From contig JBODTK010000153.1 of assembly GCA_050613775.1 (NCBI GenBank), positions 1 through 64,000 on the forward strand: DNA of 64,000 nucleotides, given 5' to 3'. Origin of the DNA: Neocallimastix sp. 'constans' (taxonomy: Eukaryota). The notes under the pieces were generated by a model. It was not told the origin of the DNA. It searched no databases and saw only the letters and a list, made by a program, of their open reading frames with translations. The position numbers and the translations under genes are program-made. Each line of letters opens with the position of its first letter. Positions within the stretch are counted from its first letter, which is position 1. Of this stretch, positions 1 to 54,048 are shown piece after piece.

Positions 1-88
1 AATAAATTTATAAATAAAAATAATAAATAAATAAATAAAATTTGTGTTTCCTTACTTTATTTTTATTTAATTCTCTAAAACCTTAACA
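1..88. mobile_element. Probable terminus (...CCTTAACA) of another LTR element inserted 17 bp inside the host chromovirus 3' LTR; the rest lies outside the window
   Basis: 89-105 equals the host LTR end at 18673-18689. The match stops abruptly at a ...AACA end (TGTTAAGG on minus), which resembles an LTR terminus. Confidence 0.55.
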
Positions 89-107
89 CTGAGGATTTCG
101 TTACATG

Positions 108-1048: not shown

Positions 1049-1059
1049 ATTTTCCAACT
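1049..1059 (+). promoter_or_regulatory. Self-priming PBS ATTTTCCAACT (copy 1; same sequence at 7705-7715 in copy 2)
   Basis: No TGG tRNA-type PBS; 11/11 complementarity to the LTR. Confidence 0.85.
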
Positions 1060-1204
1060 CGTTAGATTAGTATAGTTTACCTTTGTGTAGGATAGACTAG
1101 TAATAGTATAAAAATTTTTTTTTTTTTTTTGAAATAATAATTAAAAAGTGGATTTAGTAATACTTTATAGTTTAATTTATAGTTTAATAAATAATAATAA
1201 TAAG

Positions 1205-4200
1205 ATGAATTACATAAATATCAACAATCAACATCCAGGAGCTAGGGGAGACTTTGACGCAGCCTCTGAAGCCAGCTCCATGGAAATAGAAAATGAGGTT
1301 GGTAATAACGTCAATACCAGGGCACGCCTCATTCCGAAACCAAAAGCATTCTCCGGAAGAAGAAACGAACTACCAGCCTTCCTTGGTCAAATCAACCGAT
1401 ATTTTAAGTACAATTTAGACGAAGAAGCTGCTGCTGATGACGAATTCAAGATTGATATCATAAGTAGTTATTTGGAGGGAAACGCTGCTGAATGGTTTGC
1501 TGATCTAGTTAAAGAAGAAAGTCCACTATTGGAAAATTATGAGAATTTTATTGACGCTTTGCAACAACGTTACAAATCCTGTGCGAGTTCAGATGTCGCG
1601 AACAGTCGACTTACCAAGATACGTAGCCAACAATTTAGAACAATAGCCGAATACTGCAATCAGTTCGAGAAAATAGCCAGAGATTCATCATTTAATGACG
1701 AAGCTAAAATCCATTTTTTCATTGAGGGTTTACCAACAAGAGAAAAAGAAAGAACCAAACTAATTTATCCTAGAATTAGAAGAATTAATGAACTAATTAA
1801 TGTTGTAGCTGCTAATGCTGAAGAAGATCGTCGTGTTAACGGAAATGACCCAATGGATATAGATCAAAGAAGAATTAGACCTTTTCGTAGGGATTTAGGA
1901 TCAAGCCGTTACCAAAATAATTACCGAAGTAGCCAAAATTACAGGGATTCTTCACCAAAGAGGTCAAACAAACCGAAGAAGTGTTTTATATGTAAGAGCA
2001 CAAGCCACTTAAAGGAAAACTGTCCCAAGCAACAGGACAAAATTAGAAGAAGAGAAAAGATCTTACAGATTAAATTGAGCGAGAAAAGTTTAACTCACAC
2101 TTACAATGTTGTTTTTAAGTACAAAAATGGTTTTATTATGTCCGCAATTCTAGATACTGGCTCAGATCTTAATATTATGGATAGAGCTACCGCCGATAAA
2201 TACCAGATCCCAGTACAACGAATCCGCCATGAGAAAAACGTTATCGGATTTAACGGAAATGGAACAATTCGTTATGAAACCATTCCATTAACTATGGTCA
2301 TGGGTCAACATATCGAAACCATTCAATTTTACATTTATAGTTTACCAAAAGGAATTTCGGTTATTTTAGGAAATCCATGGTTGAAGAAGCATTGCCCAAC
2401 AATTGAATTTGATAAAGGTAATATCAGATTCAGTTCCCAATACTGCAAGAGAAATTGTTGTGCCACCGCTGAAGATATTATGAGAAGAACAACTGAAGAA
2501 AAGAAGAAAAAAGATGAAATCCGCCGAAGTAAGATACAATTAGCTAGAGAAATTATTAATAATTATAATAATGTATTAGATAGTTTAGATAATAATGATG
2601 TTAAAAAATTAGTCGATAATAAAAATAAATTATGTAGTAAAAAATCACGTAATATAAAGGCTATTATGAAAAAAGCCTTAGTTAAAAAAGAAAAATGTAT
2701 TAAAAGAAAAGAATTAAATAAAGGAAAATTTGAAAATTATGCTTTCTGTTATGTTTTAAAAAATGAAAATAAAGATAAAAGTGTTATTAAATGTGATTAT
2801 AATAATGAAAGTGTTAAAGAAAATAAAAGTTTGGAAAGAATACCAAAACAATATGAGAAATTCAAAAATGTGTTTGATGAACAAGAGTGTAACGAATTAC
2901 CACCACACCGTCCATACGACTGTAAAATTAGATTAAAGGATGATGTAGACTTATTTTATGGACCATTATATCCATTAACGGAAGAAGAACGTGAAGCTTT
3001 AAAAGAATATATCAAAGAAAATTTAGAAAAAGGCTTCATTAGACCTTCAACATCTCCTGCTGGTGCTCCAATTTTATTCGTTAGAAAAAAGGATGGAAGT
3101 TTAAGACTCTGTGTCGATTATCGAAGACTTAATGAAAATACTATAAGGGACTCCTATCCACTCCCTTTAATCACCGAGCTTTTTGACAGATTGAGAGAAG
3201 CTAAGTATTTTACTAAGTTAGATTTAAAATCAGCATATAATCTAGTAAGAATTCGTAAAGGAGATGAGTATAAAACCGCTTTCAGAACAAGATACGGTCA
3301 TTATGAATACCGAGTAATGCCCTTTGGATTAAAGAATGCACCTGCAACTTTCCAACACTTTATTAATGACGTTTTAGGAGAATACTTAGATGAATTTGCT
3401 TTTGCCTATATCGATGATATACTTATTTATTCTGAGACATTAGAAGAACACCGTACACATGTTAAGAAAATACTTAAGAAATTACAAGAAAGTGGTCTTT
3501 ATGCAAAATTAAGTAAGAGTGAATTTGAAGTCCAGAAAACAACATTCTTGGGGCACGTAATATCCAATCAAGGAATTTCCATGGATCCGGATAAAGTTAA
3601 GTCTATCTTAGAATGGCCAATACCAACTACAGTCAAAGAAGTACAATCATTTATAGGTTTATGCAACTACTACCGAAGATTCATCCCAAACTTTGCTAAA
3701 ATTGCTAAGCCGTTACACAACTTAACAAGAAAAGATGTTAAATATGAATGGACTGAAGAATGTTCTGTCGCATTCGAAACTTTAAAGAAACTCTTTACAA
3801 AAGAACCAATACTTGTTCATGCAGATCCAGAATTACTGTTTATAGTAGAGACAGATGCAAGTAATTTTGCAATTGGTGCCGTATTATCTCAAAGAAATAA
3901 GGATACAAATGAGTTACATCCAATTTGTTATTATTCAAGAGGTTTAACAAAATCTGAAAAGAATTATCCAATATATGACAAGGAATTATTAGCTGTCAAG
4001 TGTGCGTTACAAGAATGGAGACATTACTTAGAAGGGGCTAAGCATCAATTTACAATTTATACCGATCATAAAAATTTAACTTTTCCACGTAAACCTGAGT
4101 TGTTATCTCAACGTCAAATAAGATGGAACTTATTCTTATCTCGATTTGATTACAAAATACAATATAGACCAGGAAAAGAAGGTGGAAAACCAGATGCTTT

Positions 4201-5773
4201 TTCGAGAAGACCAGATTATGAAAATCAAGAAATAGATGATGAAAAAGAAACTTCAACTTGTCTTACAATACAAGAAGCTACAGAAGATTTATGTTTGGTT
4301 GCAATTCAAGGGAACTTAAAAGATGAATTGATAAAAGAAATTAAAGATGATGAAGTCATACAAGAATTAATCAAGATCAAAAAAGGAGAATCTACTTCTA
4401 ATAATAAATATAAAAATAAAATGAAAGACTTTACTATTGACGAAGAAGGTTTATTATTATATAAGGGTTTAATTTTCGTTCCAAAGAAGATGAGAAATAT
4501 TATCATTGCTATTCATCATGATAATCCAGTTCAAGGTCATTTTGGTATTCTCAAAACCAAAGAAATTATAAGTAGAAATTTTGTTTGGTTTAAGATGACT
4601 TCCGATATTGTTAAGTATATCGCATCATGCAAAACATGTGCTCAAGTAAAAGATGATCGCCACCGTCCTTATGGATTACTTCAACCTCTTCCTACTCCAA
4701 AAAGACCATGGTTCTCAGTCTCAATGGATTTTATAACTGATTTACCTAAGTCAAGAGACAAAACAGTTATAATGGTCGTAGTTGATAGATTAACAAAGAT
4801 GGCTCACTTTATTCCATTTAGAAGTATACCTACTGCTCAAATCGCTGCTGATGTATTTTTTAGAGAAGTTTTTCGTTTACACGGATTACCAGAAGATATT
4901 ACTTCCGATAGAGGATCTCAATTCACCTCCGAATTCTGGCAAAGACTTTGTAGTTTATTAGATATTCGTCAAAATTTGTCAACAGCACATCACCCTCAAA
5001 CAGATGGTCAAACTGAACGAGTTAATGGTATATTAGAACAATTTTTAAGGTGCTATATTAACAAAAGAAAAAATAACTGGATGGACATTCTTCCTTATGC
5101 TGAATTCGCATATAATAACACATTACAACAATCGACTAATCAGACACCATTCTTCTCAAATTATGGTTTTAATCCAAAATTCAATCCAGTTATACCTGCT
5201 GATAGCAGAAGAACAAGTACCATTGACCATGTTGAACAAATAAGGAAAAACATGCAATTCCTCAAGAAAAATTTAGAAAAAGCTAAGGAAAGATATAAGA
5301 GATATGCAGATCACTTAAGAATTGTAGGACCAAAATTAAAAGTAGGTGATAAAGTTTGGTTAAAGCGTCCAGATTTGCTTCCTAAAGGTCCAGCTAAGTT
5401 AACAAATAGAAAACTCGGTCCTTTTAAAATTATTGAAAAAACAGGCCCTGTTTCTTATAAATTAGAATTACCTGATACTATTAAATGCCATAATGTTTTC
5501 CATATTTCAAATCTAGAACCTTACAATGAAAGAGAATTTAATGAATCAAGTGCAAGTACTATTACTCGAATTACTTCGATCGCTACTGATACTGAAGGAA
5601 AGGAACCTTTGAAGATTGTTGCCGCTAAAGTTGTTAACAATAAACCTTTTTACTTTATGTTATGGAAAGGACTTCCAGCTACTGAATGTACTTGGTTGTC
5701 TGAAGATGAAATCACTGATCCTCAATTAGTTCAAGAGTTCAATAAAACAAATAGAGTTCCTTCTAGATTATAA
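1205..5773 (+). CDS. Gag-PR-RT-RNaseH-IN-chromodomain polyprotein
   Basis: CCHC knuckle CFICKSTSHLKENC, protease ILDTGS, RT YIDD, RNase H TDAS, integrase HHCC plus MDF/SDRG/TERVN, GPF motif, C-terminal chromodomain. First ATG is at 1205 (the ORF track begins at GTG 1148). Confidence 0.97.
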   Translation: MNYININNQHPGARGDFDAASEASSMEIENEVGNNVNTRARLIPKPKAFSGRRNELPAFLGQINRYFKYNLDEEAAADDEFKIDIISSYLEGNAAEWFADLVKEESPLLENYENFIDALQQRYKSCASSDVANSRLTKIRSQQFRTIAEYCNQFEKIARDSSFNDEAKIHFFIEGLPTREKERTKLIYPRIRRINELINVVAANAEEDRRVNGNDPMDIDQRRIRPFRRDLGSSRYQNNYRSSQNYRDSSPKRSNKPKKCFICKSTSHLKENCPKQQDKIRRREKILQIKLSEKSLTHTYNVVFKYKNGFIMSAILDTGSDLNIMDRATADKYQIPVQRIRHEKNVIGFNGNGTIRYETIPLTMVMGQHIETIQFYIYSLPKGISVILGNPWLKKHCPTIEFDKGNIRFSSQYCKRNCCATAEDIMRRTTEEKKKKDEIRRSKIQLAREIINNYNNVLDSLDNNDVKKLVDNKNKLCSKKSRNIKAIMKKALVKKEKCIKRKELNKGKFENYAFCYVLKNENKDKSVIKCDYNNESVKENKSLERIPKQYEKFKNVFDEQECNELPPHRPYDCKIRLKDDVDLFYGPLYPLTEEEREALKEYIKENLEKGFIRPSTSPAGAPILFVRKKDGSLRLCVDYRRLNENTIRDSYPLPLITELFDRLREAKYFTKLDLKSAYNLVRIRKGDEYKTAFRTRYGHYEYRVMPFGLKNAPATFQHFINDVLGEYLDEFAFAYIDDILIYSETLEEHRTHVKKILKKLQESGLYAKLSKSEFEVQKTTFLGHVISNQGISMDPDKVKSILEWPIPTTVKEVQSFIGLCNYYRRFIPNFAKIAKPLHNLTRKDVKYEWTEECSVAFETLKKLFTKEPILVHADPELLFIVETDASNFAIGAVLSQRNKDTNELHPICYYSRGLTKSEKNYPIYDKELLAVKCALQEWRHYLEGAKHQFTIYTDHKNLTFPRKPELLSQRQIRWNLFLSRFDYKIQYRPGKEGGKPDAFSRRPDYENQEIDDEKETSTCLTIQEATEDLCLVAIQGNLKDELIKEIKDDEVIQELIKIKKGESTSNNKYKNKMKDFTIDEEGLLLYKGLIFVPKKMRNIIIAIHHDNPVQGHFGILKTKEIISRNFVWFKMTSDIVKYIASCKTCAQVKDDRHRPYGLLQPLPTPKRPWFSVSMDFITDLPKSRDKTVIMVVVDRLTKMAHFIPFRSIPTAQIAADVFFREVFRLHGLPEDITSDRGSQFTSEFWQRLCSLLDIRQNLSTAHHPQTDGQTERVNGILEQFLRCYINKRKNNWMDILPYAEFAYNNTLQQSTNQTPFFSNYGFNPKFNPVIPADSRRTSTIDHVEQIRKNMQFLKKNLEKAKERYKRYADHLRIVGPKLKVGDKVWLKRPDLLPKGPAKLTNRKLGPFKIIEKTGPVSYKLELPDTIKCHNVFHISNLEPYNEREFNESSASTITRITSIATDTEGKEPLKIVAAKVVNNKPFYFMLWKGLPATECTWLSEDEITDPQLVQEFNKTNRVPSRL

Positions 5774-5806
5774 GTCGCTCAGGGGCTCGACTTAAACAGA
5801 GGGGCA

Positions 5807-6747
5807 TGTAAAATATTTAATAATTTGAATACGTATTTAAATGTAATGTAATGTAAATTATTGTGGATAAAAATGTTTTCCAAATTTTTAATATAAATTT
5901 AAATGTATTCCAAATTATTAATTTAATTAATTTTCTCAAAAATGTATGACTAAATTATTTGGAGAATTTACATCATTATTACTCACTTTGAATCATGAAA
6001 CTTGTAAATTAAAAATAATTAGTCATGAAACTTGTAAATTAAAAATAATTAGTCATAAATTAGTTAAATTAAAATAATCAAAGAAAAATTGCCTTTTCCG
6101 TTTGTTTACAAAAACTTGCCGTTTTGTTTATTTATTTTTAGAAATATTAGATAGTTTTAAATAGTTTTTATATTAAAATAATTCATAACATTTCATGTAA
6201 TTTATTATTAAATGTAATTACAAATATATAATAATATTTTAGTTAGTTTATTACAATCTATTCAATTTAAATTTTAATTTTCAAAAAGTATAAAAAGAGT
6301 TAATTTTCAACTATTGAACGATAGTTGGAAAATAGTATAGAAAATAGTATAGTTTAGTTAGAAAATAGAATAGTATAGGAAATATTATAGATAAGATAGA
6401 TAGTACAAATTTTATATTTTATTAATTAGTATTATAACTATTATTAGAATAGTTATCTTTTATAAAACAAATTTTATTTTAAATTTTATTTTAAAATCTT
6501 AACTGCTAGTAGGCTTTCCGGTAAAGGACCCTACGGTACCCAGTTAAGTGATTGTTGATTTTAGAATAGTTAAATTCAACAAATAAGAAATATTAATAAA
6601 AGGATTTTTTTTATAAAACAAAAAATTAAATTAGTTTTTTAGTTTTAGTGTTTTATTTAATAATTAATTATAGTGTTGATAAAATAAAATAGTGTAAAAT
6701 AAATTATAGTCTGTCCTCGCCGACTTAAGCTATTATTTTATTTTACA
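5807..6747 (+). repeat. 3' LTR of copy 1
   Basis: No differences from 108-1048 seen by eye. Confidence 0.97.
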
Positions 6748-6752
6748 ACATG

Positions 6753-7704
6753 TGTAAAATATTTGTAAAATATTTAATAATTTGAATACGTATTTAAATG
6801 TAATGTAATGTAAATTATTGTGGATAAAAATGTTTTCCAAATTTTTAATATAAATTTAAATGTATTCCAAATTATTAATTTAATTAATTTTCTCTAAAAT
6901 GTATGACTAAATTATTTGGAGAATTTACATCATTATTACTCACTTTGAATCATGGAACTTTGTAAATTAAAAATAATTAGTCATGAAACTTGTAAATTAA
7001 AAATAATTAGTCATAAATTAGTTAAATTAAAATAATCAAAGAAAAATTGCCTTTTCCGTTTGTTTACAAAAACTTGCCGTTTTGTTTATTTATTTTTAGA
7101 AATATTAGATAGTTTTAAATAGTTTTTATATTAAAATAACTCATAAAAATTCATGTAATTTATTATTAAATGTAATTACAAATATATAATAATATTTTAG
7201 TTAGTTTATTACAATCTATTCAATTTAAATTTTAATTTTCAAAAAGTATAAAATGAGTTAATTTTCAACTATTGAACGATAGTTGGAAAATAGTATAGAA
7301 AATAGTATAGTTTAGTTAGAAAATAGAATAGTATAGGAAATATTATAGATAAGATAGATAGTACAAATTTTATATTTTATTAATTAGTATTATAACTATT
7401 ATTAGAATAGTTATCTTTTATAAAACAAATTTTATTTTAAATTTTATTTTAAAATCTTAACTGCTAGTAGGCTTTCCGGTAAAGGACCCTACGGTACCCA
7501 GTTAAGTGATTGTTGATTTTAGAATAGTTAAATTCAACAAATAAGAAATATTAATAAAAGGATTTTTTTATAAAACAAAAAATTAAATTAGTTTTTTAGT
7601 TTTAGTGTTTTAGTTAATAATTAATTATAGTGTTGATATAATAAAATAGTGTAAAATAAATTATAGTCTGTCCTCGCCGACCTAAGCTATTATTTTATTT
7701 TACA
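6753..7704 (+). repeat. 5' LTR of copy 2
   Basis: Direct repeat of 12459-13410. Confidence 0.97.
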
Positions 7705-7856
7705 ATTTTCCAACTCGTTAGATTAGTATAACTTACCTTTGCGTAGGATAGACTAGTAATAATATAAGAATTTTTTTATTTTGAAATAATAATTAAAAAG
7801 TGGAATTAGTAATACTTTATAGTTTAATTTATAGTTTAATAAATAATAATAATAAA

Positions 7857-10800
7857 ATGAATTACATAAATATCAACAATCAACATCCAGGAGCTAGGGG
7901 AGACTTTGACGCAGCCTCTGAAGCCAGCTCCATGGAAATAGAAAATGAGGTTGGTAATAACGTCAATACCAGGGCACGCCTCATTCCGAAACCAAAAGCA
8001 TTCTCCGGAAGAAGAAACGAACTACCAGCTTTCCTTGGTCAAATCAACCGATATTTTAAGTACAATTTAGACGAAGAAGCTGCCGCTGATGACGAATTCA
8101 AGATTGATATTATAAGTAGTTATTTGGAAGGAAACGCTGCTGAATGGTTTGCTGATCTAGTTAAAGAAGAAAGTCCACTATTGGAAAACTACGAAAACTT
8201 TATTGACGCTTTGCAGCAACGTTACAAATCCTGTGCGAGTTCAGATGTCGCGAACAGTCAACTTACCAAGACACGTAGCCAACAATTTAGAACAATAGCC
8301 GAATACTGCAATCAGTTCGAGAAAATAGCCAGAGATTCATCATTTAATGACGAAGCTAAAATCCATTTTTTCATCGAGGGTTTACCAACAAGAGAAAAAG
8401 AAAGAACCAAACTAATTTATCCTAGAATTAGAAGAATTAATGAACTAATTAATGTTGTAGCTGCTAATGCTGAAGAAGATCGTCGTTTTAACGGAAATGA
8501 CCCAATGGATATAGATCAAAGAAGAATTAGACCTTTTCGTAGGGATTTAGGATCAAGTCGTTACCAAAATAATTATCGAAGTAGCCAAAATTACAGGGAT
8601 TCTTCACCAAAGAGATCAAACAAACCGAAGAAGTATTTTATATGTAAGAGCACAAGACATTTAAAGGAAAACTGTCCCAAGCAACAGGACAAAATTAGAA
8701 GAAGAGAAAGGGTCTTACAGATTAAATTGAGTGAGAAAAGTTTAGCTCACACTTACAAAGTTGTTTTTAAGTACAAAAATGGTTTTATTATGCCCGCAAT
8801 TCTAGATACTGGTTCAGATCTTAATATTATGGATAGAGCTACCGCCGATAAATACCAGATCCCAATGCAACGAATCCGCCATGAGAAAAACATTATCGGA
8901 TTTAATGGAAATGGAACAATTCGTTATGAAACCATTCCATTAACTATGGTCATGGGTCAACACACCGAAACCATTCAATTTTACATTTACAGTTTACCAA
9001 AAGGAATTTCGGTTATTTTAGGAAATCCATGGTTGAAGAAGCATTGCCCAACAATTGAATTTGATAAAGGTAATATCAGATTCAGTTCCCAATACTGCAA
9101 GAGAAATTGTTGTGCCACCGCTGAAGATATTATGAGAAGAACAACTGAAGAAAAGAAGAAAAAAGATGAAATCCGCCGAAGTAAGATACAATTAGTTAGA
9201 GAAATTATTAATAATTATAATGATGTATTAGATAGTTTAGATAATAATGATGTTAAAAAATTAGTCGATAATAAAAATAAATTATGTAGTAAAAAATCAC
9301 GTAATATAAAGGCTATTATGAAAAAAGCTTTAGTTAAAAAAGAAAAATGTATTAAAAGAAAAGAATTAAATAAAGGAAAATTTGAAAATTATGCTTTCTG
9401 TTATGTTTTAAAAAATGAAAATAAAGATAAAAGTGTTATTAAATGTGATTATAATAATGAAAGTGTTAAAGAAAATAAAAGTTTGGAAAGAATACCAAAA
9501 CAATATGAGAAATTTAAAAATGTGTTTGATGAACAAGAGTGTAACGAATTACCACCACATCGTCCATACGACTGTAAAATTAGATTAAAGGATGATGTAG
9601 ACTTATTTTATGGACCATTATATCCATTAACGGAAGAAGAACGTGAAGCTTTAAAAGAATATATCAAAGAAAATTTAGAAAAAGGCTTCATTAGACCTTC
9701 AACATCTCCTGCTGGTGCTCCAATTCTATTCGTTAGAAAAAAGGATGGAAGTTTAAGACTTTGTGTCGATTATCGAAGACTTAATGAAAATACTATAAGG
9801 GATTCCTATCCACTCCCTTTAATCACCGAGCTTTTTGACAGATTGAGAGAAGCTAAGTATTTTACTAAGTTAGATTTAAAATCAGCTTATAACCTGGTAA
9901 GAATACGTGAAGGTGATGAATATAAAACAGCATTTCGAACAAGATATGGTCATTTCGAATATCTTGTTATGCCATTTGGTTTGAAGAATGCTCCAGCAAC
10001 TTTCCAACACTTTATTAATGACGTTTTAGGAGAATACTTAGATGAATTTGCTTTTGCCTATATCGATGATATACTTATTTATTCTGAGACATTAGAAGAA
10101 CACCGTACACATGTTAAGAAAATACTTAAGAAATTACAAGAAAGTGGTCTTTATGCAAAATTAAGTAAGAGTGAATTTGAAGTCCAGAAAACAACATTCT
10201 TGGGGCACGTAATATCCAATCAAGGAATTTCCATGGATCCGGATAAAGTTAAGTCTATCTTAGAATGGCCAATACCAACTACAGTCAAAGAAGTACAATC
10301 ATTTATAGGTTTATGCAACTACTACCGAAGATTCATCCCAAACTTTGCTAAAATTGCTAAGCCGTTACACAACTTGACAAGAAAAGATGTTAAATATGAA
10401 TGGACTGAAGAATGTTCTGTCGCATTCGATACTTTAAAGAAACTCTTTACAAAAGAACCAATACTTGTTCATGCAGATCCAGAATTACCGTTTATAGTAG
10501 AGACAGATGCAAGTAATTTTGCAATCGGTGCTGTGTTATCTCAAAGACAAAAATATACAAACGCATTACATCCAATTTGTTATTATTCAAGAGGTTTAAC
10601 AAAATCTGAAAAGAATTATCCAATATATGACAAAGAATTATTAGCTGTCAAGTGTGCGTTACAAGAATGGAGACATTACTTAGAAGGGGCTAAGCATCAA
10701 TTTACAATTTATACCGATCATAAAAATTTAACTTTTCCACGTAAACCTGAGTTGTTATCTCAACGTCAAATAAGATGGAACTTATTCTTATCTCGATTTG

Positions 10801-12425
10801 ATTACAAAATACAATATAGACCAGGAAAAGAAGGTGGAAAATCAGATGCTTTTTCGAGAAGACCAGATTATGAAAATCAAGAAATAGATGATGAAAAAGA
10901 AACTTCAGCTTGTCTTACAATACAAGAAGCTACAGAAGATTTATGTTTAGTTGCAATTCAAGGGAACTTAAAAGATGAATTGATAAAAGAAATTAAAGAT
11001 GATGAAGTCATACAAGAATTAATCAAGATCAAAAAAGGAGAATCTACTTCTAATAATAAATATAAAAATAAAATGAAAGACTTTACTATTGACGAAGAAG
11101 GTTTATTATTATATAAGGGTTTAATTTTCGTTCCAAAGAAGATGAGAAATATTATCATTGCTATTCATCATGATAATCCAGTTCAAGGTCATTTTGGTAT
11201 TCTCAAAACCAAAGAAATTATAAGTAGAAATTTTGTTTGGTTTAAGATGACTTCCGATATTGTTAAGTATATCGCATCATGCAAAACATGTGCTCGAGTA
11301 AAAGATGATCGCCACCGTCCTTATGGATTACTTCAACCTCTTCCTACTCCAAAAAGACCATGGTCCTCAGTTTCAATGGATTTTATAACTGATTTACCTA
11401 AGTCAAGAGACAAAACAGTTATAATGGTCGTAGTTGATAGATTAACAAAGATGGCTCACTTTATTCCATTTAGGAGTATACCTACTACTCAAATCGCTGC
11501 TGATGTATTTTTTAGAGAAGTTTTTCGTTTACACGGATTACCAGAAGATATTACTTCCGATAGAGGATCTCAATTCACCTCCGAATTCTGGCAAAGACTT
11601 TGTAGTTTATTAGATATTCGTCAAAATTTGTCAACAGCACATCACCCTCAAACAGATGGTCAAACTGAACGAGTTAATGGTATATTAGAACAATTTTTAA
11701 GGTGCTATATTAACAAAAGAAAAAATAACTGGATGGACATTCTTCCTTATGCTGAATTCGCATATAATAACACATTACAACAATCGACTAATCAGACACC
11801 ATTCTTCTCAAATTATGGTTTTAATCCAAAATTCAATCCAGTTATACCTGCTGATAGCAGAAGAACAAGTACCATTGACCATGTTGAACAAATAAGGAAA
11901 AACATGCAATTCCTCAAGAAAAATTTAGAAAAAGCTAAGGAAAGATATAAGAGATATGCAGATCACTTAAGAATTGTAGGACCAAAATTAAAAGTAGGTG
12001 ATAAAGTTTGGTTAAAGCGTCCAGACTTACTTCCAAAAGGTCCTTCTAAATTGACTAACAGAAAACTCGGTCCTTTTAAAATTATTGAAAAAACAGGCCC
12101 TGTTTCTTATAAATTAGAATTACCTGATACTATTAAATGCCATAATGTTTTCCATATTTCAAATCTAGAACCTTACAATGAAAGAGAATTTGATGAATCA
12201 AGTACAAGTACTATTACTCGAATTACTTCGATCGCTACTGATACTGAAGGAAAGGAACCTTTGAAGATTGTTGCCGCTAAAGTTGTTAATAATAAACCTT
12301 TTTACTTTATGTTATGGAAAGGACTTCCAGCTACTGAATGTACTTGGTTGTCTGAAGATGAAATCACTGATCCTCAATTAGTTCAAGAGTTCAATAAAAC
12401 AAATAGAGTTCCTTCTAGATTATAA
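7857..12425 (+). CDS. Gag-Pol polyprotein, copy 2 (first Cys of the zinc knuckle replaced by Tyr)
   Basis: Same motifs as copy 1; the knuckle reads YFICKSTRHLKENC. Confidence 0.97.
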   Translation: MNYININNQHPGARGDFDAASEASSMEIENEVGNNVNTRARLIPKPKAFSGRRNELPAFLGQINRYFKYNLDEEAAADDEFKIDIISSYLEGNAAEWFADLVKEESPLLENYENFIDALQQRYKSCASSDVANSQLTKTRSQQFRTIAEYCNQFEKIARDSSFNDEAKIHFFIEGLPTREKERTKLIYPRIRRINELINVVAANAEEDRRFNGNDPMDIDQRRIRPFRRDLGSSRYQNNYRSSQNYRDSSPKRSNKPKKYFICKSTRHLKENCPKQQDKIRRRERVLQIKLSEKSLAHTYKVVFKYKNGFIMPAILDTGSDLNIMDRATADKYQIPMQRIRHEKNIIGFNGNGTIRYETIPLTMVMGQHTETIQFYIYSLPKGISVILGNPWLKKHCPTIEFDKGNIRFSSQYCKRNCCATAEDIMRRTTEEKKKKDEIRRSKIQLVREIINNYNDVLDSLDNNDVKKLVDNKNKLCSKKSRNIKAIMKKALVKKEKCIKRKELNKGKFENYAFCYVLKNENKDKSVIKCDYNNESVKENKSLERIPKQYEKFKNVFDEQECNELPPHRPYDCKIRLKDDVDLFYGPLYPLTEEEREALKEYIKENLEKGFIRPSTSPAGAPILFVRKKDGSLRLCVDYRRLNENTIRDSYPLPLITELFDRLREAKYFTKLDLKSAYNLVRIREGDEYKTAFRTRYGHFEYLVMPFGLKNAPATFQHFINDVLGEYLDEFAFAYIDDILIYSETLEEHRTHVKKILKKLQESGLYAKLSKSEFEVQKTTFLGHVISNQGISMDPDKVKSILEWPIPTTVKEVQSFIGLCNYYRRFIPNFAKIAKPLHNLTRKDVKYEWTEECSVAFDTLKKLFTKEPILVHADPELPFIVETDASNFAIGAVLSQRQKYTNALHPICYYSRGLTKSEKNYPIYDKELLAVKCALQEWRHYLEGAKHQFTIYTDHKNLTFPRKPELLSQRQIRWNLFLSRFDYKIQYRPGKEGGKSDAFSRRPDYENQEIDDEKETSACLTIQEATEDLCLVAIQGNLKDELIKEIKDDEVIQELIKIKKGESTSNNKYKNKMKDFTIDEEGLLLYKGLIFVPKKMRNIIIAIHHDNPVQGHFGILKTKEIISRNFVWFKMTSDIVKYIASCKTCARVKDDRHRPYGLLQPLPTPKRPWSSVSMDFITDLPKSRDKTVIMVVVDRLTKMAHFIPFRSIPTTQIAADVFFREVFRLHGLPEDITSDRGSQFTSEFWQRLCSLLDIRQNLSTAHHPQTDGQTERVNGILEQFLRCYINKRKNNWMDILPYAEFAYNNTLQQSTNQTPFFSNYGFNPKFNPVIPADSRRTSTIDHVEQIRKNMQFLKKNLEKAKERYKRYADHLRIVGPKLKVGDKVWLKRPDLLPKGPSKLTNRKLGPFKIIEKTGPVSYKLELPDTIKCHNVFHISNLEPYNEREFDESSTSTITRITSIATDTEGKEPLKIVAAKVVNNKPFYFMLWKGLPATECTWLSEDEITDPQLVQEFNKTNRVPSRL

Positions 12426-12458
12426 GTCGCTCAGGGGCTCGACTTAAACAGAGGGGCA

Positions 12459-13410
12459 TGTAAAATATTTGTAAAATATTTAATAATTTGAATACGTATT
12501 TAAATGTAATGTAATGTAAATTATTGTGGATAAAAATGTTTTCCAAATTTTTAATATAAATTTAAATGTATTCCAAATTATTAATTTAATTAATTTTCTC
12601 TAAAATGTATGACTAAATTATTTGGAGAATTTACATCATTATTACTCACTTTGAATCATGGAACTTTGTAAATTAAAAATAATTAGTCATGAAACTTGTA
12701 AATTAAAAATAATTAGTCATAAATTAGTTAAATTAAAATAATCAAAGAAAAATTGCCTTTTCCGTTTGTTTACAAAAACTTGCCGTTTTGTTTATTTATT
12801 TTTAGAAATATTAGATAGTTTTAAATAGTTTTTATATTAAAATAACTCATAAAAATTCATGTAATTTATTATTAAATGTAATTACAAATATATAATAATA
12901 TTTTAGTTAGTTTATTACAATCTATTCAATTTAAATTTTAATTTTCAAAAAGTATAAAATGAGTTAATTTTCAACTATTGAACGATAGTTGGAAAATAGT
13001 ATAGAAAATAGTATAGTTTAGTTAGAAAATAGAATAGTATAGGAAATATTATAGATAAGATAGATAGTACAAATTTTATATTTTATTAATTAGTATTATA
13101 ACTATTATTAGAATAGTTATCTTTTATAAAACAAATTTTATTTTAAATTTTATTTTAAAATCTTAACTGCTAGTAGGCTTTCCGGTAAAGGACCCTACGG
13201 TACCCAGTTAAGTGATTGTTGATTTTAGAATAGTTAAATTCAACAAATAAGAAATATTAATAAAAGGATTTTTTTATAAAACAAAAAATTAAATTAGTTT
13301 TTTAGTTTTAGTGTTTTAGTTAATAATTAATTATAGTGTTGATATAATAAAATAGTGTAAAATAAATTATAGTCTGTCCTCGCCGACCTAAGCTATTATT
13401 TTATTTTACA
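12459..13410 (+). repeat. 3' LTR of copy 2
   Basis: Shares the copy-2-specific variants with 6753-7704. Confidence 0.97.
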
Positions 13411-13740
13411 ACATGGTCCGCCTCCAGGATTCGGATACCAGACGAATCTAACAGTTAGGCATAACTATACTAAAATTAAGCAAACTAAACTAAACTAAAC
13501 TAAATTAAAATAAAATAAAATATAATAAAATAAAAATAATTAATTAACCATTTTATAGTACGAACTTTTTTGAATAAAATTACATGATATTAATAAAGTT
13601 ACATGAATATAATATATAATAAGAATACATGAATATTAATAATATTTAATAATATAAAATAATATTTAGTAATATTGATATTAATAAATTAATATAAGTT
13701 TGATATTAATAAAGTAAAGATTCATTTTCAAGTTTTAATT

Positions 13741-16182
13741 TTAGTTATTTTTGTTAAATTCTTTTAAGAGTTTAGGGCAATTTAAATTTTCTTCGGGTTC
13801 CCAAGATGCTTCAGATAAAGGATAGCCTTTCCATTTAATAAGATATTGGGTTTTGCCATAATGTTTTCTTTTATCAAGAATTTTTTCAACTTCGTATTCT
13901 TCTTCATTGTCAATAATTATCGGTGGTGGTGGTTCTTTCTTTCGTCCAAAGTGATCTTCATAAAATGGTTCAAGTTCAGAAACATGTATTACAGGATGGA
14001 TTCTGATTTCTTTTGGTAAGTCTAACTTATATGAAACGGGAGAAATTTTCTTAATGATTTTATATGGACCAAGTTTTCTGGGTTTAAGTTTTTTATTTCC
14101 ATTATGAATTATAAGTGAACTATTAATCCACACTTTATCACCAGGTTCAAAATTTGGAGCTTCAATACGATGTTTGTTTGCGAATTCTTCTTGCTTTTTT
14201 CTTGCTTGTTGTAAATTTCCATTAAGTGTTTTGAATAATTCTGAAAGGTCTTTTGTAAATTCATCAGCTCTAGGAACATCTGTACTGTTTGGAATTGATG
14301 GTGAATATCTTGGATTATATCCATAGTTTGCATAAAAAGGTGAGTGCTTAATTGATTCTTGAATTGAATTATTATAACTGAATTCTGCTAGGAATAAAAA
14401 ATTATACCAGTCAGAACCTTTAAAGTTTGAATAACATCTTAAGTATTGTTCAATAACGGAGTTCACCCTCTCCGTTAAACCATTGGTTTGGTGATGGAAG
14501 GGAGAAGCAAGTTTCGTTGTGATATTGAAAGATTTACAAATAGCTGACCAAAATTTTGAAGTGAATTGAGAACCTTTATCAGAAAAAAAATCGGAGGGTG
14601 GTTTATGAATAATACGAAAGAGATCATTTAGGTCTTTCTTGGGAACAAATGAAACAGAAGCAGCAGCTGGAGATATAGATTTACTAATAAATTTTTTGTC
14701 TTCATTTTCTTTAATATATTTCTTCGAAGCTAGAGATTCTTTTTCAGTTAAGGGGTAGATTGGATCATAATGAAGTTTTTCATTTTGTTTGGGTTTAATC
14801 TCGCTATCAAAAGGACAATAAGGAGGTGATTCATTAGTGTATATTTCACTGAAAGTGTCTATAAATGGAAGTAATTTTTTTGGTAATGATTTGCTTATTT
14901 TATTATTGATTTCTTCATTTTCATTTTTGTCATTTTGTTTAGTAGTATTTAAAGGAACATAAGAAGTAAAGGAGTTAGGGATGATTAAACAATTTTCAAC
15001 GCAATAATTGGAATTAAATCTTAAGACTTTATTTTTGAAGTCAATATCAGGATTGTGAGTAGAAATCCATTCGAAACCTAAAATAGCACAATAAGAAGGA
15101 AGGTCAACCACATAGAATTGAGTTTTACATTTGTGATTTTTATAAGTGATGGAAATAGGAAGAGTTTTTCCAAGAATAGTTTGCTTTCCACCGATGCCAG
15201 ATACCTTAGGGAAATTAGTTTTGGTTGAATACGGGATATTATTTTCTTTAATATAGTAGATATCCATTAAATTGATTTGAGAACCAGTATCGAGAAGAAT
15301 TTTAGCGGTAGAATTTGTATTATCAATACTTAAAGAAAATTCGTAAATAGGAAGATTTGAGTCAGAAACTCTAGGTCTAGAAATAGGTTTTGATTCGGGA
15401 TTAGAAACATAAGTGCTACTTGATGAAGGTTTATTTTTGTATTTATTTTTAAGTGGACAATTGTCGAGAGAATGTTCAGAGGATCCACAATATAAACAAA
15501 GATTTTCTCTTCTTCTTCTTTCTTTTTCTTCTTGAGATAGAGGTCCATGAGGTTTGGATTTAAATTGCTTTTGGAAAAAGAATGATTTTTTGCCCTTTTT
15601 ATTTTTATTATTATTACTATTATTTGAATTTTGACCATGAAGATTGGAAAATTGTCTATGAGTAGAAATACGATTATCGATTCGAGATGCAATTGTTTGC
15701 ATAGCAAAGAGGGTTTGAGGTCCAGGAAACATTTCTAAAATTCTAGTAGCAATATGGTCATGTAGACCGACAAGAAAGGCGTCCATCTTGGCTTCTTCAT
15801 TCCAAGAAGATTCATCGGCGTATTTATTAAATTCTAAAATATAATTTCTGACTTCACCAATTCGTTTTTGTTTGATTGTTCTTAATTTCTGGTTGGCAAT
15901 AAAGGTAGAGTCGTAGCTTCCAAATACTGATTTTAATCTAGCAATGAATTGATTATAATTAAGGAGACAAGGATCTTGGTTTTCAATAAGGGTAGCAGCC
16001 CAATTCATGGCGTTTCCATACAAACGAGAAATGATATAGATTACTTTAGCTTCATCGTTTGCAAATCTTTCCGGTTGAATCATAAAAATAAGTTCCATTT
16101 TAGCTAGAAATCCTTTAAAGAATCGACGATCACCAGCAAAACCGTCCTTAAAGGTAGGATTTTCTTGGTTATAGTTGTCCAT
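13741..16182 (-). CDS. Gag-protease-(RT/RNaseH deleted)-partial integrase-chromodomain ORF
   Basis: [21 protein letters not shown], degenerate RT start ending FVPKKD fused in frame to integrase ([12 protein letters not shown]), GPY, canonical chromodomain YEVEKIL...WKGY. Confidence 0.93.
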
Positions 16183-17571: not shown

Positions 17572-18044
17572 GTTAAGGTAATGTAAGTTTTATCTTAATA
17601 GGGTAGTACAAGTTTAATTTGAATTATATGATCGGGTAGTACAAGAATTTTTGTTATAAAAATTAATTTCAACAACCATAGGATTAGGATTATCCGGTAA
17701 TATAATAGATACAAAGGATTGAATTATATAATAGTGAGGGTAACTCAAAACAGACAAGGTGATAATTTGAATAGGAATCAATAGGCAGTAATTATTCGTC
17801 TGGGAGGAGATAGAATCCGAGATTAAAAGATATAGAAGTCCGGTATTAAAGAGATAGTAGATAAAAAGATTTATTCAAAGATTATTAGATTAAGATAGAG
17901 AGAACCGGAAGAGTAGGTATTAGTAAAAGTAGAAACCCAACGATTGCCAAAAGATATTAAGAAAGTAGAATTCCTAAAAGTGCGGTAGAATGTCTGCGGG
18001 ATAGCGCAAAGGTATTGAGGGCTTGGATTAGCAGGTGCTTTTAT

Positions 18045-18689
18045 TGTAACGGAGGTGCTTCTATTGTAACGGCGGGACGGGGTATAGAAACACACAAAAG
18101 AAGAAAACTCAATAGGTTTACACTATCTGTATAAATAATTCGTTTTATTAGAAATATTTTTTATTAATTATAAAATTTAAAATAATTATTAATATTAATC
18201 AACAAGGTAATATTTCGAATTACTTATACGTTAATTATTATTAATAAAAGCACGAAGAAAAATATTTTCATTCGTGAAGTTCGCACTATTTATACTTTTA
18301 ACGGAAAAACAGTTTTAACATGTAAAAATAATTTTAAAGAAATATTTAGAAATATGTTTGTAATAATTAATAATGTAAAGTTTCTAGAATATAGATTTTA
18401 ATTGATGAAAATGAATCTTATCAAAAAAGAATAAAATAATTTATATAATAAGAATTTCTAAATTCATTTCGGTTGAATTACGAACCGAAAGAATCTTTAA
18501 CTTTCTATAATTTTATACAGAAAGAATATTCAAGAAGATATTATTAATAATTAATAAAATAATTAATAAAATAATTATTTATGCAAAATGGGTTGAGGTG
18601 TGAGTCGAACCCATGAAGTATTGGTCATGGTCAATGTAACTAACCATTGAACCAAAGTTCTAATTTTACTAACTGAGGATTTCGTTACA
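18045..18689 (-). repeat. 5' LTR of host chromovirus (645 bp)
   Basis: 7-bp terminal inverted repeats TGTAACG/CGTTACA; TATAAATA at 18294-18287; self-primer 18253-18244; first 17 nt recur at 105-89. Confidence 0.85.
18585..18661 (-). promoter_or_regulatory. tRNA-like Pol III internal promoter (A-box and B-box) within the LTR
   Basis: A-box TGGTTCAATGG (18654-18644), B-box GGTTCGACTCA (18611-18601), tRNA-like spacing, T4 run just downstream. The cloverleaf is degenerate. Confidence 0.6.
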
Positions 18690-19735
18690 GTATTATTATT
18701 AGTTATTGTTTGATTAGTTGGTGGTTGTGAATCCTCAAAAATTTCAATAGATTCATTGAAAGTAACATTTTTATGATCTTTATTTTCTTTAAATTCTTTA
18801 CCTTCTTCTTTTTCTGTTGATAGTTTGACATTCGTTCCTCCCTCATCTATTATCATATCAGGTGTTCCTGTAGTTGCTAATTTATTAACGTTTAATTTTC
18901 TTTTCATAATAGTATTTTTCTTCATAGCATTTGTAATAATTGGAACTGGATTATCTATAAGCTTTTTCTTTATTTCTTTGGTATATGGGGAGATTTTTAT
19001 TGAATTATTTTTACCTTTCTTTTGGGCAACAGCGATAATTTCCTCATTATGGTAATTATCAAAATTATTATAAACATTATTTGAATTAGGTTCATTATTA
19101 ATTTTCTTTTCATTATCATTTATAGAAATTCTATTTAAATCAATTTCATTGTTACTTTGATCATCATTATTATTTTTATAAGTATTATTTATATTAACAT
19201 CATTGTTAACTTGTTTATTAATAGTGTCATTTTCATAGATGTTGTTATGATTACTATTATTTAATTTATAACCGTTACTAGTATTCTTACTAAGATATTC
19301 TATATTATTTAAGTTATTATTATTATTATTATTGGAATAAATATTATCAATACTTGTATGATTATCATCAAATAAACTGTTTGTATAATTTATTTTATTA
19401 TTCTTATTTAAATAATTATTGTTTATATCATAATTATGTGAATTATCATTATAAGGATATCCATTATTTATTACATCATTATTTGAAGTTGCACTAGCAT
19501 TATATGAATTATTATTATTATTATTATTATTATGTAAGTTATTATTATTATTATTATTATGTAAATTATTATCATTAGTATTATTATAATTATTTTTTGT
19601 TTTCATAGTATTATTATTTAACTTGGGAGAGTATGTTAAATTTACATATTCTTCATTAATACTATTATTTTTATTATAAGTTTGGAGTTTGGTTTGGTTA
19701 ACGGGAGTTGTCCTTCTCCCATTATTTAGTTTAAA
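18690..19735 (-). CDS. ORF2 (presumed pol N-terminus, Asn-rich) reached by -1 frameshift; truncated by the host-element insertion
   Basis: The -1 frame is open from the slippery site into ORF 19606-18575. The last ~37 aa of that ORF are read-through into the inserted LTR. Confidence 0.7.
19703..19735 (-). promoter_or_regulatory. -1 programmed ribosomal frameshift signal
   Basis: T TTA AAC in frame just before the gag stop, 8-nt spacer, GGGAG-AAGGACAA-CTCCC hairpin. Confidence 0.85.
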
Positions 19736-21030
19736 TTATTAAAGCTATCTCCATTATTATTATTATTATTTACATTAGCTTTGAAATTACTATTAATATT
19801 TGAACTAGTAGTATTAATATCCTGATTTATTCCATTAGAATTTCTATTAAAATTATTATTTCCAGTGGGAATATTATTCTCATTAAAATTATTATTATTT
19901 CTATTAGCAATATTATTTCCAGTAAATTTATTATTTTTATTAAAGTAATAATTACTACCATTAAAAGAATTATTGTAGCCATTTTTATTACTATTATTAT
20001 AATAATTGTTATATTTATTACTATTATTATTATAATCAAAATTATTATTATAATTATTACCCATATCATTATTATTCATATTATAAAGATTATTATTTCT
20101 ATTACTACCATTATTTTTATTATTAGGACATTCATAAGCTTTATGTCCTACTTGTTTACATGAGTAACACATAACTGATTTTCTAGCTTTTGGTTCGTAG
20201 TTATTATAGAATCTTCTTGTATCATAAGTATTATTTTGTTGAATTTGTTCTACTCCGTGATAATAATTATTATTATTATTAAAACTTTTATTTTTATTGT
20301 TACTATATCTACCTGGTGTAAACATTCTATTATTGGTGGAGTTTTCATTTATATAACCCATAACATATGATGACGCTTGATATGAATTATCTAAATTATT
20401 TCCATGTTCTCTTAAGCTCTTATAAATTGGATGATTTAATAAATTGTTATTATTTTTATTTATGTTGTTTTGATATACCATAACATTCTGAGAATTTTTG
20501 TTTGTTATAGTTCGTACTTCAGCTTTTTCTGCACGTTCTGCTACTTCGAACGCTTCTGTTAATGTTTTACAGTTGGCCAAAATTACTTGAGAATGTACAT
20601 ATACCCTATCATGTATAGCATTTAAATAATCATCGACACATATTAATTTTTTATATTCCAAGTCAAGTCGATGATAAAGAGTTAAATAATTATAATTAAA
20701 TCCTTTAATTGTTTCATTTCTTTTTATTTTTAAGGCCTTTAAAATTGAACACTTATCATTTTGAGTAATTTCTAAATAATCTTCAATGGCTCTCTGGATT
20801 TCTTTATATGAGGGAAACCTTTTAACATTATTTCTTGTAGTACATAAAGATTTTAAAAGGTTTTTTATGTCAGCCTCTACTGCGTTCTTTACCCAAATAA
20901 AAATTCTGTTTGGTTCCTCAATGTTGTAAATTTCCATAACATTTTTGAAATCTTCTATCCAAGAATCTATGTCCTTACCATAATTTGCTAAGTATGGTAA
21001 GTCTCTTCTAATTTTCGAAGCGTCCGCCAT
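19726..21030 (-). CDS. Gag with CCHC zinc knuckle and Asn-rich tail
   Basis: CYSCKQVGHKAYEC; capsid-like N-terminal half; lies downstream of the PBS. Confidence 0.85.
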   Translation of the reverse strand: MADASKIRRDLPYLANYGKDIDSWIEDFKNVMEIYNIEEPNRIFIWVKNAVEADIKNLLKSLCTTRNNVKRFPSYKEIQRAIEDYLEITQNDKCSILKALKIKRNETIKGFNYNYLTLYHRLDLEYKKLICVDDYLNAIHDRVYVHSQVILANCKTLTEAFEVAERAEKAEVRTITNKNSQNVMVYQNNINKNNNNLLNHPIYKSLREHGNNLDNSYQASSYVMGYINENSTNNRMFTPGRYSNNKNKSFNNNNNYYHGVEQIQQNNTYDTRRFYNNYEPKARKSVMCYSCKQVGHKAYECPNNKNNGSNRNNNLYNMNNNDMGNNYNNNFDYNNNSNKYNNYYNNSNKNGYNNSFNGSNYYFNKNNKFTGNNIANRNNNNFNENNIPTGNNNFNRNSNGINQDINTTSSNINSNFKANVNNNNNNGDSFNNLN

Positions 21031-21116
21031 TTATCTAATTATTATTTTAATTTGAAATTATATTCTTATATACTTTTACGAGTATAATAATATTATTTTT
21101 ATTATTGTTATTATTA

Positions 21117-21169
<53 letters not shown>

Positions 21170-21797
21170 TCTTATTTTATATACTATTACTAAAATATTA
21201 CTATTATTAAAATATTATTTATTATTATTAATTATTAATTCACTATTACTAAAATATTATTTATTATTATTAATTATTACTTAATTCACTATTACTAAAA
21301 TATCATTTAATTATTATTATTATTATTATTAATTCTTATTTTATACACTATTACTAAAATATTACTATTACTAAAATATTATTTATTATTATTAATTATT
21401 ACTTAATTCACTATTACTAAAATATCATTTATTATTATTAATTATTACTTAATTCACCATTACTAAAATATTATTTATTATTATTATTAAAATATTATCT
21501 ATTATTTTTTTTTTTTCCTAAATATTATCACATATACTATTAATAAAATATTATTTAATATTAATTTTTATACTAAACTATTACTACTTTTTATTATAAT
21601 ATCATTTCTTAATTAAAGGTTTATTCGTTTTTATACTGGTCCGAATTCCCAGTTGTCTTTAATTACTAATAAAGATGATAATAAAAAAAAATTAACTATA
21701 CTAATAATAATAATTAAAGACTTATTCGTTTTTATTCTGGTTCGAACTCCCAGTTACCTTTAATTATTATTTAATAATAATCATAATAATTTTAGGC

Positions 21798-21849
<52 letters not shown>

Positions 21850-21977
21850 TTTATATATTACTATTATAAAAAAATTAATTATTTAATTTTAATTTAATAT
21901 TAATTATTTAATTGTCTTTATTTTTTAAAAAGTAAATATCAATATAAATATAAATTTCATAATATTCTTGGTTTGCA

Positions 21978-21995
21978 CGCCCGGATTCTCCACCA
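21978..21995 (-). promoter_or_regulatory. PBS complementary to the tRNA-Ala 3' end
   Basis: Plus strand reads CGCCCGGATTCTCCACCA, similar to eukaryotic tRNA-Ala ...ATTCTCCA-CCA. Confidence 0.8.
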
Positions 21996-21999
21996 TTTT

Positions 22000-22619
22000 T
22001 GATACGATATTTTATTAAATACCGTATATGTTAGTTGGGAGTTTGTGCAAAAGGGAATTACTCCAAGAATATTATATTACAATAATTATATTTACTTTTT
22101 ATTTATTTATCTTTTATTATTTTATTTATTATATTTTATCATAAAAAAAATACATGTTTTATTATTATTCCTTAAAAAAAAAAAAAGAAAATATTTATTT
22201 ATAAATTATTTTCATAATTATATTTTTTTACTAATTTTATAAATTTTATTTATCGAAACACTAAAATTAATTAATAAATATAAATATTCATAACTTTTTA
22301 CTTATAACTATTAATTCATATTGTTTAACATTATTTAAAAATTATTTTAATATTAACATCAATTTAATTAAACATTCAATCTCCGTTATAATTAATATAA
22401 CTAATTTTACTATATTATCAACAATTCTTTTAATATTTTTAATATTATTATTTAATTTAATATTTTAATAATTAATAATAATAAATTATCTTTAATAATA
22501 TATTAATAATATATTTTAAGATTCATTATATAAAATTAATTTTTAATAAATATTTATATTAATAATTTTTCTAAATAATTTTTCTATTATTTTCTATTAT
22601 TTTTACTGGACATGCATCA
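22000..22619 (-). repeat. Candidate 5' LTR of the outer element
   Basis: TGAT/ATCA termini, 4 nt from the PBS. The far boundary is inferred because no partner LTR is visible. Confidence 0.6.
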
Positions 22620-22627
22620 ACAATATA

Positions 22628-23158
22628 GTCGTTCCAGGTTCTATCCTGGCTGTTAAGGCGTTAGGTCTTAAGGCATAAGGCTCCTGGTTCGAATCCGCTC
22701 TATGACCTTATCAGTTTTCCCTTCGGGTTTTTATGATAATGCGTTGATAGAGCAATTACAGATAAGTATATTGGATTAAGTATGATGGATTTGTGGGTGA
22801 TTTGGACTCTGGTCAAAACTAAGGTGTTTTGGGCATATTTAGGAAAAACGGCACAAACCTGTCTAGATACATAAGTTATATCCAAATTGTAAATAATATG
22901 GTCAATTTCCTTAATTATACCATCTCAAAAACTAATTAAGATTTCTGCTATTCCCGATGATAGAGGGGTGGGTGGTATGACGGTCAGTCTGGATTTTCGT
23001 AATCTGTTGGGGACCATGCCTAGTACTTTAAATCCCTCTTAGAGGTAGTAGAGCGTCGACGTCAAAATGATAAGGCATGTAAGGATCTGTTTATTAAAAT
23101 ACACTCATGTGACCTACCAATGATGTAGAAATCATGTGAGAAAGTCTAAAAAAAAAAA
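22628..23158 (+). mobile_element. tRNA(Leu-like)-headed SINE
   Basis: GTTAAGGCGTTAGGTCTTAAG resembles tRNA-Leu(TAA); perfect B-box GGTTCGAATCC at 22686-22696; non-coding body; AGTCT followed by poly(A). Confidence 0.75.
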
Positions 23159-28322: not shown

Positions 28323-28394
<72 letters not shown>

Positions 28395-53980: not shown

Positions 53981-54048
53981 ATTGAAAAGACGCCTATATA
54001 AAGCGGCATATAAGGAATGCCTTTCTTATTAGCTTTACATAGAGAGAG
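53981..54048 (+). mobile_element. Internal fragment of SINE family B
   Basis: AAAGCGGCATATAAGGAATGCCTTTCTTATTAGCTTTACATAGAGAGAG aligns with 37845-37893. Confidence 0.7.

Follow-up and report, generated by a model that had tools for sequence, protein, structure and literature searches.

Several retrotransposons carry Pol III promoter motifs inside their LTRs. Kojima (2024) described Helenus (TRIMp3), short non-coding elements of 311-1263 bp with tRNA-like LTRs, found in rusts, a few Agaricomycetes, animals and one plant (PMC10886601). The A and B boxes conserved in these LTRs are proposed to drive the element, and the accessible part of the paper makes no claim that they serve as insertion targets. 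The same source states that 'not a few' Repbase LTRs resemble parts of tRNAs, of which only short ones were analysed, so Repbase or the supplements of that paper may list longer carriers. Cassandra and Ajax also have Pol III promoter motifs in their LTRs; these are of the 5S type, both elements are short and non-autonomous, and Cassandra is transcribed from its module (PMC10886601).

A second group of elements uses Pol III genes as insertion targets. Tj1 of Schizosaccharomyces japonicus is self-priming and inserts 5-11 bp upstream of Pol III genes in a fixed orientation (PMC4600332), and the dictyostelid element DGLT-A integrates 13-33 bp upstream of tRNA genes (PMC5006619). The distance for Ty3 is about 15 (PMC4600332, PMC5006619), and Skipper-2, likewise from dictyostelids, is tRNA-associated at about 100 bp downstream (PMC5006619). 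Isolated B boxes have been reported to attract TRE5-A, a non-LTR element, the boxes lying on the rDNA palindrome and not being mobile (PMC3159450). A full-text literature search, outside which most subscription papers fall, returned no report of A/B boxes in the LTRs of autonomous chromoviruses, and none of such modules as the targets of other elements or in Neocallimastigomycota.

The DNA analysed here, called the window, is the 64,000-nt stretch of Neocallimastix sp. 'constans' presented above. Within it, a chromovirus, element A, carries an A box and a B box (the module) in its LTR, and two copies of another chromovirus, element B, are inserted at the edge of that LTR. The system resembles Helenus in its Pol III motifs and Tj1 and DGLT-A in insertion at a fixed distance, and it departs from Helenus in size, coding capacity and priming. 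Shared with Helenus are A/B boxes conserved inside LTRs, the improbability of a functional tRNA and the occurrence in fungi. The first-pass annotation knew of no system like the one it proposed in fungi and left open whether one had been described; tRNA-like LTRs as such have been described there (PMC10886601). However, A spans about 5.9 kb with an ORF of 813 aa, and its relatives encode 1300-1431 aa, whereas Helenus is non-coding. Helenus is tRNA-primed with fungal members tied to Copia, whereas A and four related LTRs are self-priming, with a Ty3 capsid and a chromodomain. The boxes of Helenus are proposed to drive the element, whereas the gut-fungus carriers have a separate predicted Pol II promoter. 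Finally, the carriers of the module are Ty3/gypsy chromoviruses of Neocallimastigomycota, many of them autonomous, and not elements of rusts and a few Agaricomycetes.

The retrotransposon stack and the module of element A

The window is strongly AT-rich and eukaryotic. It encodes a Prp18 that shares 97% identity with a protein of Orpinomyces, 90% with Piromyces finnis and 83% with Anaeromyces robustus, and of 20 sequencing runs containing the stretch, 13 carry a feces or gut metagenome label, which identifies the host as an anaerobic gut fungus. Six RNA contig sets contain the stretch. Four retrotransposon families are stacked in its first 23 kb (Table 1). Element A was inserted within the second ORF of element D. 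That this ORF stays open through the module until a stop codon at 18575 was treated as chance. An A-free alternative junction at 18690 was found in run X3, and the listed piece of X5 contained no A-D bridge. The 5' LTR of A measures 645 bp once a 20-bp tandem duplication ending at 18045 is included; the duplication (18045-18084) covers the LTR end and the primer site, with a mismatch in the first primer-site copy. Contig depth is high across this LTR region, from about 18090 to 18690.

Table 1. Positions of the features discussed, numbered along the window
Feature	Positions	Strand	Description
Element A, 5' LTR	18065..18689	-	625 bp; TGTAACG...CGTTACA termini; first 17 nt recur at 105-89
A box, TGGTTCAATGG	18644..18654	-	LTR nt 36-46; 0 mismatches to TRGYNNARYGG
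B box, GGTTCGACTCA	18601..18611	-	LTR nt 79-89; 10/11; begins 43 nt after A box
T4 run after B box	18585..18588	-	LTR nt 102; not distinctive in AT-rich LTR
TATA-like box, predicted Pol II promoter of A	18287..18294	-	LTR nt 391-405 0.92 conserved among 6 LTRs
Predicted transcript start and self-primer of A	18244..18253	-	LTR nt 437-446; complement of primer-binding site; 0.93 conserved
Self-priming primer-binding site of A	18035..18044	-	10-nt complement to LTR nt 437-446
A ORF	13741..16182	-	813 aa; gag, protease-like region, integrase C-terminal part, canonical chromodomain
Polypurine tract (PPT) of A	13414..13425	-	matches PPT-LTR junctions of L005, L011, L014
A 3' LTR remnant	89..105	-	first 17 nt; between C and B insertions
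Element B1	108..6747	+	autonomous self-priming chromovirus; LTR pair 0 mismatches; diverged chromodomain; no A/B module
Element B2	6753..13410	+	own LTR pair 0 mismatches; same site as B1
Element C, 3' end of an LTR	1..88	+	inserted after A-LTR nt 17, abutting at 88
Element D	18690..22713	-	LTR 22713-22000; TGG-type primer site; zinc-knuckle gag 21030-19726
Second tRNA-like module, antisense, 5' edge of D LTR	22628..22707	+	perfect B box 22686-22696; one copy

Both A and B have a Ty3/gypsy gag-pol with a C-terminal chromodomain (Pfam) and a primer site complementary to the LTR interior, of 10 nt in A and 11 nt in B. This self-priming arrangement was found also in four related loci (L005, L009, L014, L017). 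The ORF of A has undergone an in-frame deletion of RT and RNase H, its Ty3 capsid, SH3 and chromodomain were matched by Pfam, and it is 85-93% identical to the full-length protein P0021. Among proteins of solved structure, B is closest to Ty3 Gag-Pol, with an E value of 2e-157. In the chromodomain of B the first and third cage aromatics are absent, and its C-terminus has few relatives (4 matches, the best at 42%).

Copies of ACATG flank B1 and B2 at 103, 6748 and 13411, corresponding to a 5-bp duplication, with two full LTRs around the middle copy. Because each LTR pair is free of mismatches yet the LTRs of B1 and B2 differ at 9 positions, B1 and B2 are two separate integrations at the PPT-LTR junction of A. 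Both are antisense to A and share one orientation. Since the site is exactly this junction, and Tf1 has an integrase-independent recombination pathway acting there (PMC11042837), the tandem copies might instead have arisen by such recombination. This is extremely improbable, as clean target-site duplications largely exclude it: two full LTRs and a 5-bp duplication lie between the copies, whereas Tf1 tandems formed in that way mostly have a single LTR in common (PMC11042837). In addition, B is antisense to A, and the flanks of B are unlike its own PPT or primer site.

The A box and the B box both lie where the first-pass annotation had placed them, at LTR nt 36 and 43 nt downstream, and the three insertions that it had seen at the other LTR copy are B1 and B2 at the edge and C after nt 17. 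The B box was scored against an 11-base consensus. The core of this box has been given as GTTCRAnYC (PMC3159450). In the 64 kb, on both strands, this is the sole pair made of a perfect A box and a B box with at most one mismatch, and no such pair arose in 3000 dinucleotide shuffles of the LTR or in 150 block shuffles of the window. The T4 run that had also been noted is present, but it was rejected as terminator evidence because 2.2 such runs occur per 100 nt on the module strand. The module is not a tRNA gene. ARAGORN found no functional tRNA gene in the window or among nine modules at thresholds 100 and 90, and below threshold 90 it proposed inconsistent tRNA types for the modules; Rfam gave no match. 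From the RNA run X23, 18 low-identity reads matched, none of them over the boxes. Summed contig depth, which is not a measure of copy number, drops over the module in X1 and X3.

The antisense tRNA-like module at the edge of the D LTR was recognised by ARAGORN as Leu(taa)-like at lowered thresholds only. Element D is unrelated to A, and a purine-rich tract precedes its LTR; the D module may represent another capture event, independent of the first, at a similar position. Both C (in run X1) and D have TGGTGGAG primer sites 5-6 nt from the LTR end (window 88 and 21995), which presumably fit an alanine tRNA primer. In X1 the LTR end of C is followed by this TGG-type primer site at high depth.

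Elsewhere in the window, a GC-richer repeat of about 300 bp was found at 37621-37943, 63461-63766 and 53985-54048, two copies being 73% identical and one followed by a long A run. Direct repeats of 130 bp (99%) surround a copia-type gag ORF (34163-35164) at 33828-36283. Exons with weak 7tm_3 and Chlamydia PMP-repeat matches at 24746-29340 (-) possibly form one receptor-like gene.

Conservation and predicted folding of the module in related LTRs

Using an A-like protein alignment, 16 metagenome loci were retrieved via gag and not via the boxes. These loci contain eight TGTAACGAA LTR starts, seven of which have an A box at nt 35-36. A B box follows 42-44 nt later in six of the seven, and the other one, with a perfect A box, ends at the contig end; the eighth LTR start is broken at nt 20. 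The conservation across copies by which the first-pass annotation had proposed to judge the module is seen in this fixed place, held in seven of the eight gag-found starts. The same A/B pair was present in a more distant element, L009 X, which is outside the eight LTR starts and whose 'nt 36' is set by the chosen window.

Across nine modules, the constrained A-box positions show 4 mismatches in 81, and the free positions vary between TC, AT and CT. Mean pairwise identity among six LTRs is 0.97 for the B box, 0.70 for the A box and 0.61 for the spacer, with 0.47 for nt 10-35 and 0.44 for the rest of U3. The B box ranked second in conservation among 615 sliding 11-mers of these six LTRs, behind only the same site moved by one base. 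By identity, the A box alone ranked only 122 of 615 windows, its changes falling mostly on free positions. Conservation of the TATA and the self-primer is about equal to that of the B box, and the first nine LTR bases (nt 1-9) do not vary and keep a constant distance to the boxes. The module is very probably real and conserved.

Three carriers, L005, L011 and L009 X, are intact gag-pol elements with ORFs of 1300-1431 aa, which makes the module a feature of the clade and not only of a deleted derivative, and the view that a non-autonomous element spreads it too narrow. Short-read contigs can mis-join LTR and interior, but the PPT-LTR junctions resemble one another in L005, L011 and L014 and read through without a break. 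In L009, two module-bearing LTRs stand head to head (723 on the minus strand and 848-901 on the plus strand), with an A-type LTR start about 117 nt upstream of the tRNA-equivalent start of the other LTR. Pattern searches gave one unrelated coding match for LTR nt 1-17 in viral contigs and no match for LTR nt 13-33 in metagenome contigs. The degenerate module pattern was absent from viral contigs, and in prokaryote genomes it gave one bacterial tRNA-like chance match.

tRNA-like boxes in an LTR are the hallmark of Helenus, and the module might accordingly promote transcription of its own element, the role that such motifs have in Cassandra and are proposed to have in Helenus (PMC10886601). This reading is very improbable for the carriers, which are protein-coding elements of 5-6 kb, and autonomous elements must use Pol II according to Kojima (PMC10886601). 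T runs occur 4-23 nt past the B box. A separate TATA and self-priming architecture lies some 350-400 nt downstream of the boxes and puts the predicted start at LTR nt 437. With a TATA in front of this start and about 400 nt between it and the A box upstream, the module cannot plausibly drive a 5-6 kb element.

The module may also matter as RNA. For each of eight modules, 975-1000 of 1000 spacer-only shuffles fold less well, and single-sequence folds predict an A-box hairpin, plus a B-box hairpin in most modules, suggesting that the module likely forms hairpins that pair both boxes. In a hand-drawn two-hairpin structure 78.5% of cells are paired and 6 of the 18 pairs have changed on both sides, an outcome reached by none of 500 shuffles, although the structure was drawn after viewing related sequences, which biases these controls. 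RNAalifold recovered the B-box hairpin only, with a covariation term of +0.49 and no covariation bonus. The module could therefore have been selected as a two-hairpin Pol III transcript or as a 3' genomic-RNA structure by the polypurine tract, with the insertions at its edge reflecting general piling of retrotransposons; indeed, A-type LTRs lie within other retrotransposons at five of six sites with readable flanks (the window, L007, L008, L014 and L017, the exception being L009). Such selection as RNA is unlikely: the hairpins change register from copy to copy, the B-box hairpin (hairpin 2) is gone from the window copy, and three insertions at one base are not explained by general piling.

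Insertions of element B at the LTR edge

Contigs of runs X1, X5, X10 and X14 were compared with window positions 30-190, a comparison that detects one orientation and window-like LTR variants only. In X5, three contigs contain the start of B, joined to the PPT junction (depth 33.8), to an unrelated flank (4.9) and to an A-type LTR edge (10.2). The last, a contig of 443 nt, joins the B start to A-LTR nt 1-10, followed by a different A-type LTR; its nt 11-40 differ from the window and reach TGGTT at nt 36, with 2 differing letters unplaced. A 47-nt contig of X14 has the same B junction and leaves the window sequence at nt 11, at a depth of 135 versus 2012 for the B start. The X5 and X14 junctions are possibly one insertion in related strains, so B is counted as having integrated three times or more at this one LTR position, with two or more LTR variants hit.

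ACATG occurs at 29 sites in 40.8 kb, and at least two B flanks are without it (the X14 loose end and X5 record 27), the X14 flank showing no module in the 30 nt displayed. Since the motif is frequent and other B flanks are without it, a five-base preference cannot explain the recurrence of B. A preference of B for the A-type LTR edge is highly probable. Among the seven module-bearing LTR starts of the fetched loci, none has an insertion in nt 1-35 or B at the edge, and in X3 the PPT-LTR junction is empty. The patterns for the B junction and the C end were absent from viral contigs, where B pol matched one GC-rich element with its flanks absent.

Counted from the tRNA-equivalent +1, C ends 16 nt upstream and B 30 nt upstream. 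The distance for C, which the first-pass annotation had likened to that of Ty3, holds as a count but rests on an assumed 5-bp duplication, the second copy of which lies left of the window together with the remaining A LTR. No C junction at the site after A-LTR nt 17 was found in X5, X10 or X14, though the C end is deep in X10 and X14, and in X1 the same three-way junction recurs with one base changed and was not counted as independent. Of the nested insertions, those of B recur at one LTR base, and that of C is one event of an abundant element, unrepeated in three of four runs.

In L007 (4318-4892), an A-type LTR start interrupts a chromodomain ORF, and 20 nt on another self-priming LTR starts, with 12-bp terminal inverted repeats; the case is ambiguous and may involve a third family. 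It was left out of the count of targeted insertions, as its nt 13-20 repeat the start in inverted form and the contig does not contain the second target duplication.

Element B shares its Ty3/gypsy affiliation with Ty3, Tj1, DGLT-A and Skipper-2, which integrate at set distances from Pol III genes; at least three B insertions lie at one distance from the A/B boxes, which is at the same time a fixed distance from the invariant LTR end. It further resembles Tj1 in self-priming and in the single orientation of both window copies (PMC4600332), and Skipper-2 in the same loss of the chromodomain cage (PMC5006619). The targets of these four elements are host tRNA or 5S genes, whereas the proposed target of B is a module inside another retrotransposon. 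TRE5-A is alike in that a B box outside a tRNA gene can draw a Pol III-targeted retrotransposon (PMC3159450). The 30 nt of B exceeds the distances of Ty3 and Tj1 and comes close to the upper limit of those for DGLT-A.

The module could instead be a real TFIIIC-type element while B is drawn by the invariant LTR end, or by a host protein bound there in the manner of Sap1. This is a minority possibility, unlikely though not slight. All B insertions observed at A-type LTRs share 12 target bases, save the 2 unplaced differences of X5, LTR nt 1-9 are invariant, and the distance matches neither Ty3 nor Tj1. Moreover, Sap1, the target selector of Tf1, has a binding site in the Tf1/Tf2 LTRs (PMC5371812). 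The likeness is that an LTR binds a target-selecting factor, but Sap1 is not a Pol III factor, and Tf1/Tf2 both carries and uses the site (PMC5371812). On the other hand, the flanks of B without ACATG indicate that B is not strictly sequence-specific, and no candidate protein site near the edge is better conserved than the boxes. With nt 1-9 of the LTR invariant and always equally far from the boxes, the same data are predicted whether B is tethered by Pol III factors or recognises the LTR end, directly or through a Sap1-like protein.

A possible role for the module

Our preferred explanation is that a self-priming chromovirus clade keeps A and B boxes 35-90 nt inside its LTR, where TFIIIC likely binds, and that Pol III factors likely tether the unrelated chromovirus B 30 nt upstream of the tRNA-equivalent start. 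Binding and tethering are each judged likely; the account as a whole stands at close to even chances, and the landing pad is plausible, not proven. The module would be kept for the benefit of its carrier, most likely as a chromatin boundary upstream of the carrier's own Pol II promoter. The canonical chromodomain would place A in repeat-rich chromatin, and the landing pad would be a by-product. This suggestion draws on the canonical chromodomain together with the precedent of MAGGY, whose chromodomain binds methylated H3K9 (PMC4600332), on the boundary activity of extra-TFIIIC sites in yeasts (PMC3159450) and on the five of six insertions inside retrotransposons. More speculatively, hairpins masking the boxes might keep the 3' copy in genomic RNA from tRNA-like folding and from cleavage by tRNA processing. 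That autonomous chromoviruses of gut fungi carry a hairpin-masked, tRNA-derived TFIIIC site, at which a second chromovirus integrates base-precisely, is put forward tentatively, at somewhat below even probability.

Independently of targeting, a conserved tRNA-type module at the upstream edge of U3, in autonomous elements apparently driven by Pol II, points to an LTR function, boundary or small RNA, for which no description was found. In the usual view, the number of host tRNA genes sets a limit on Pol III-targeted retrotransposons. If the tentative reading above is true, the Pol III landing pads of one retrotransposon family are made by another, and should functional A/B boxes be spread by an LTR family, safe target sites would multiply along with the carrier. 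This could help to explain the nested retrotransposon stacks in the repeat-rich genomes of gut fungi.
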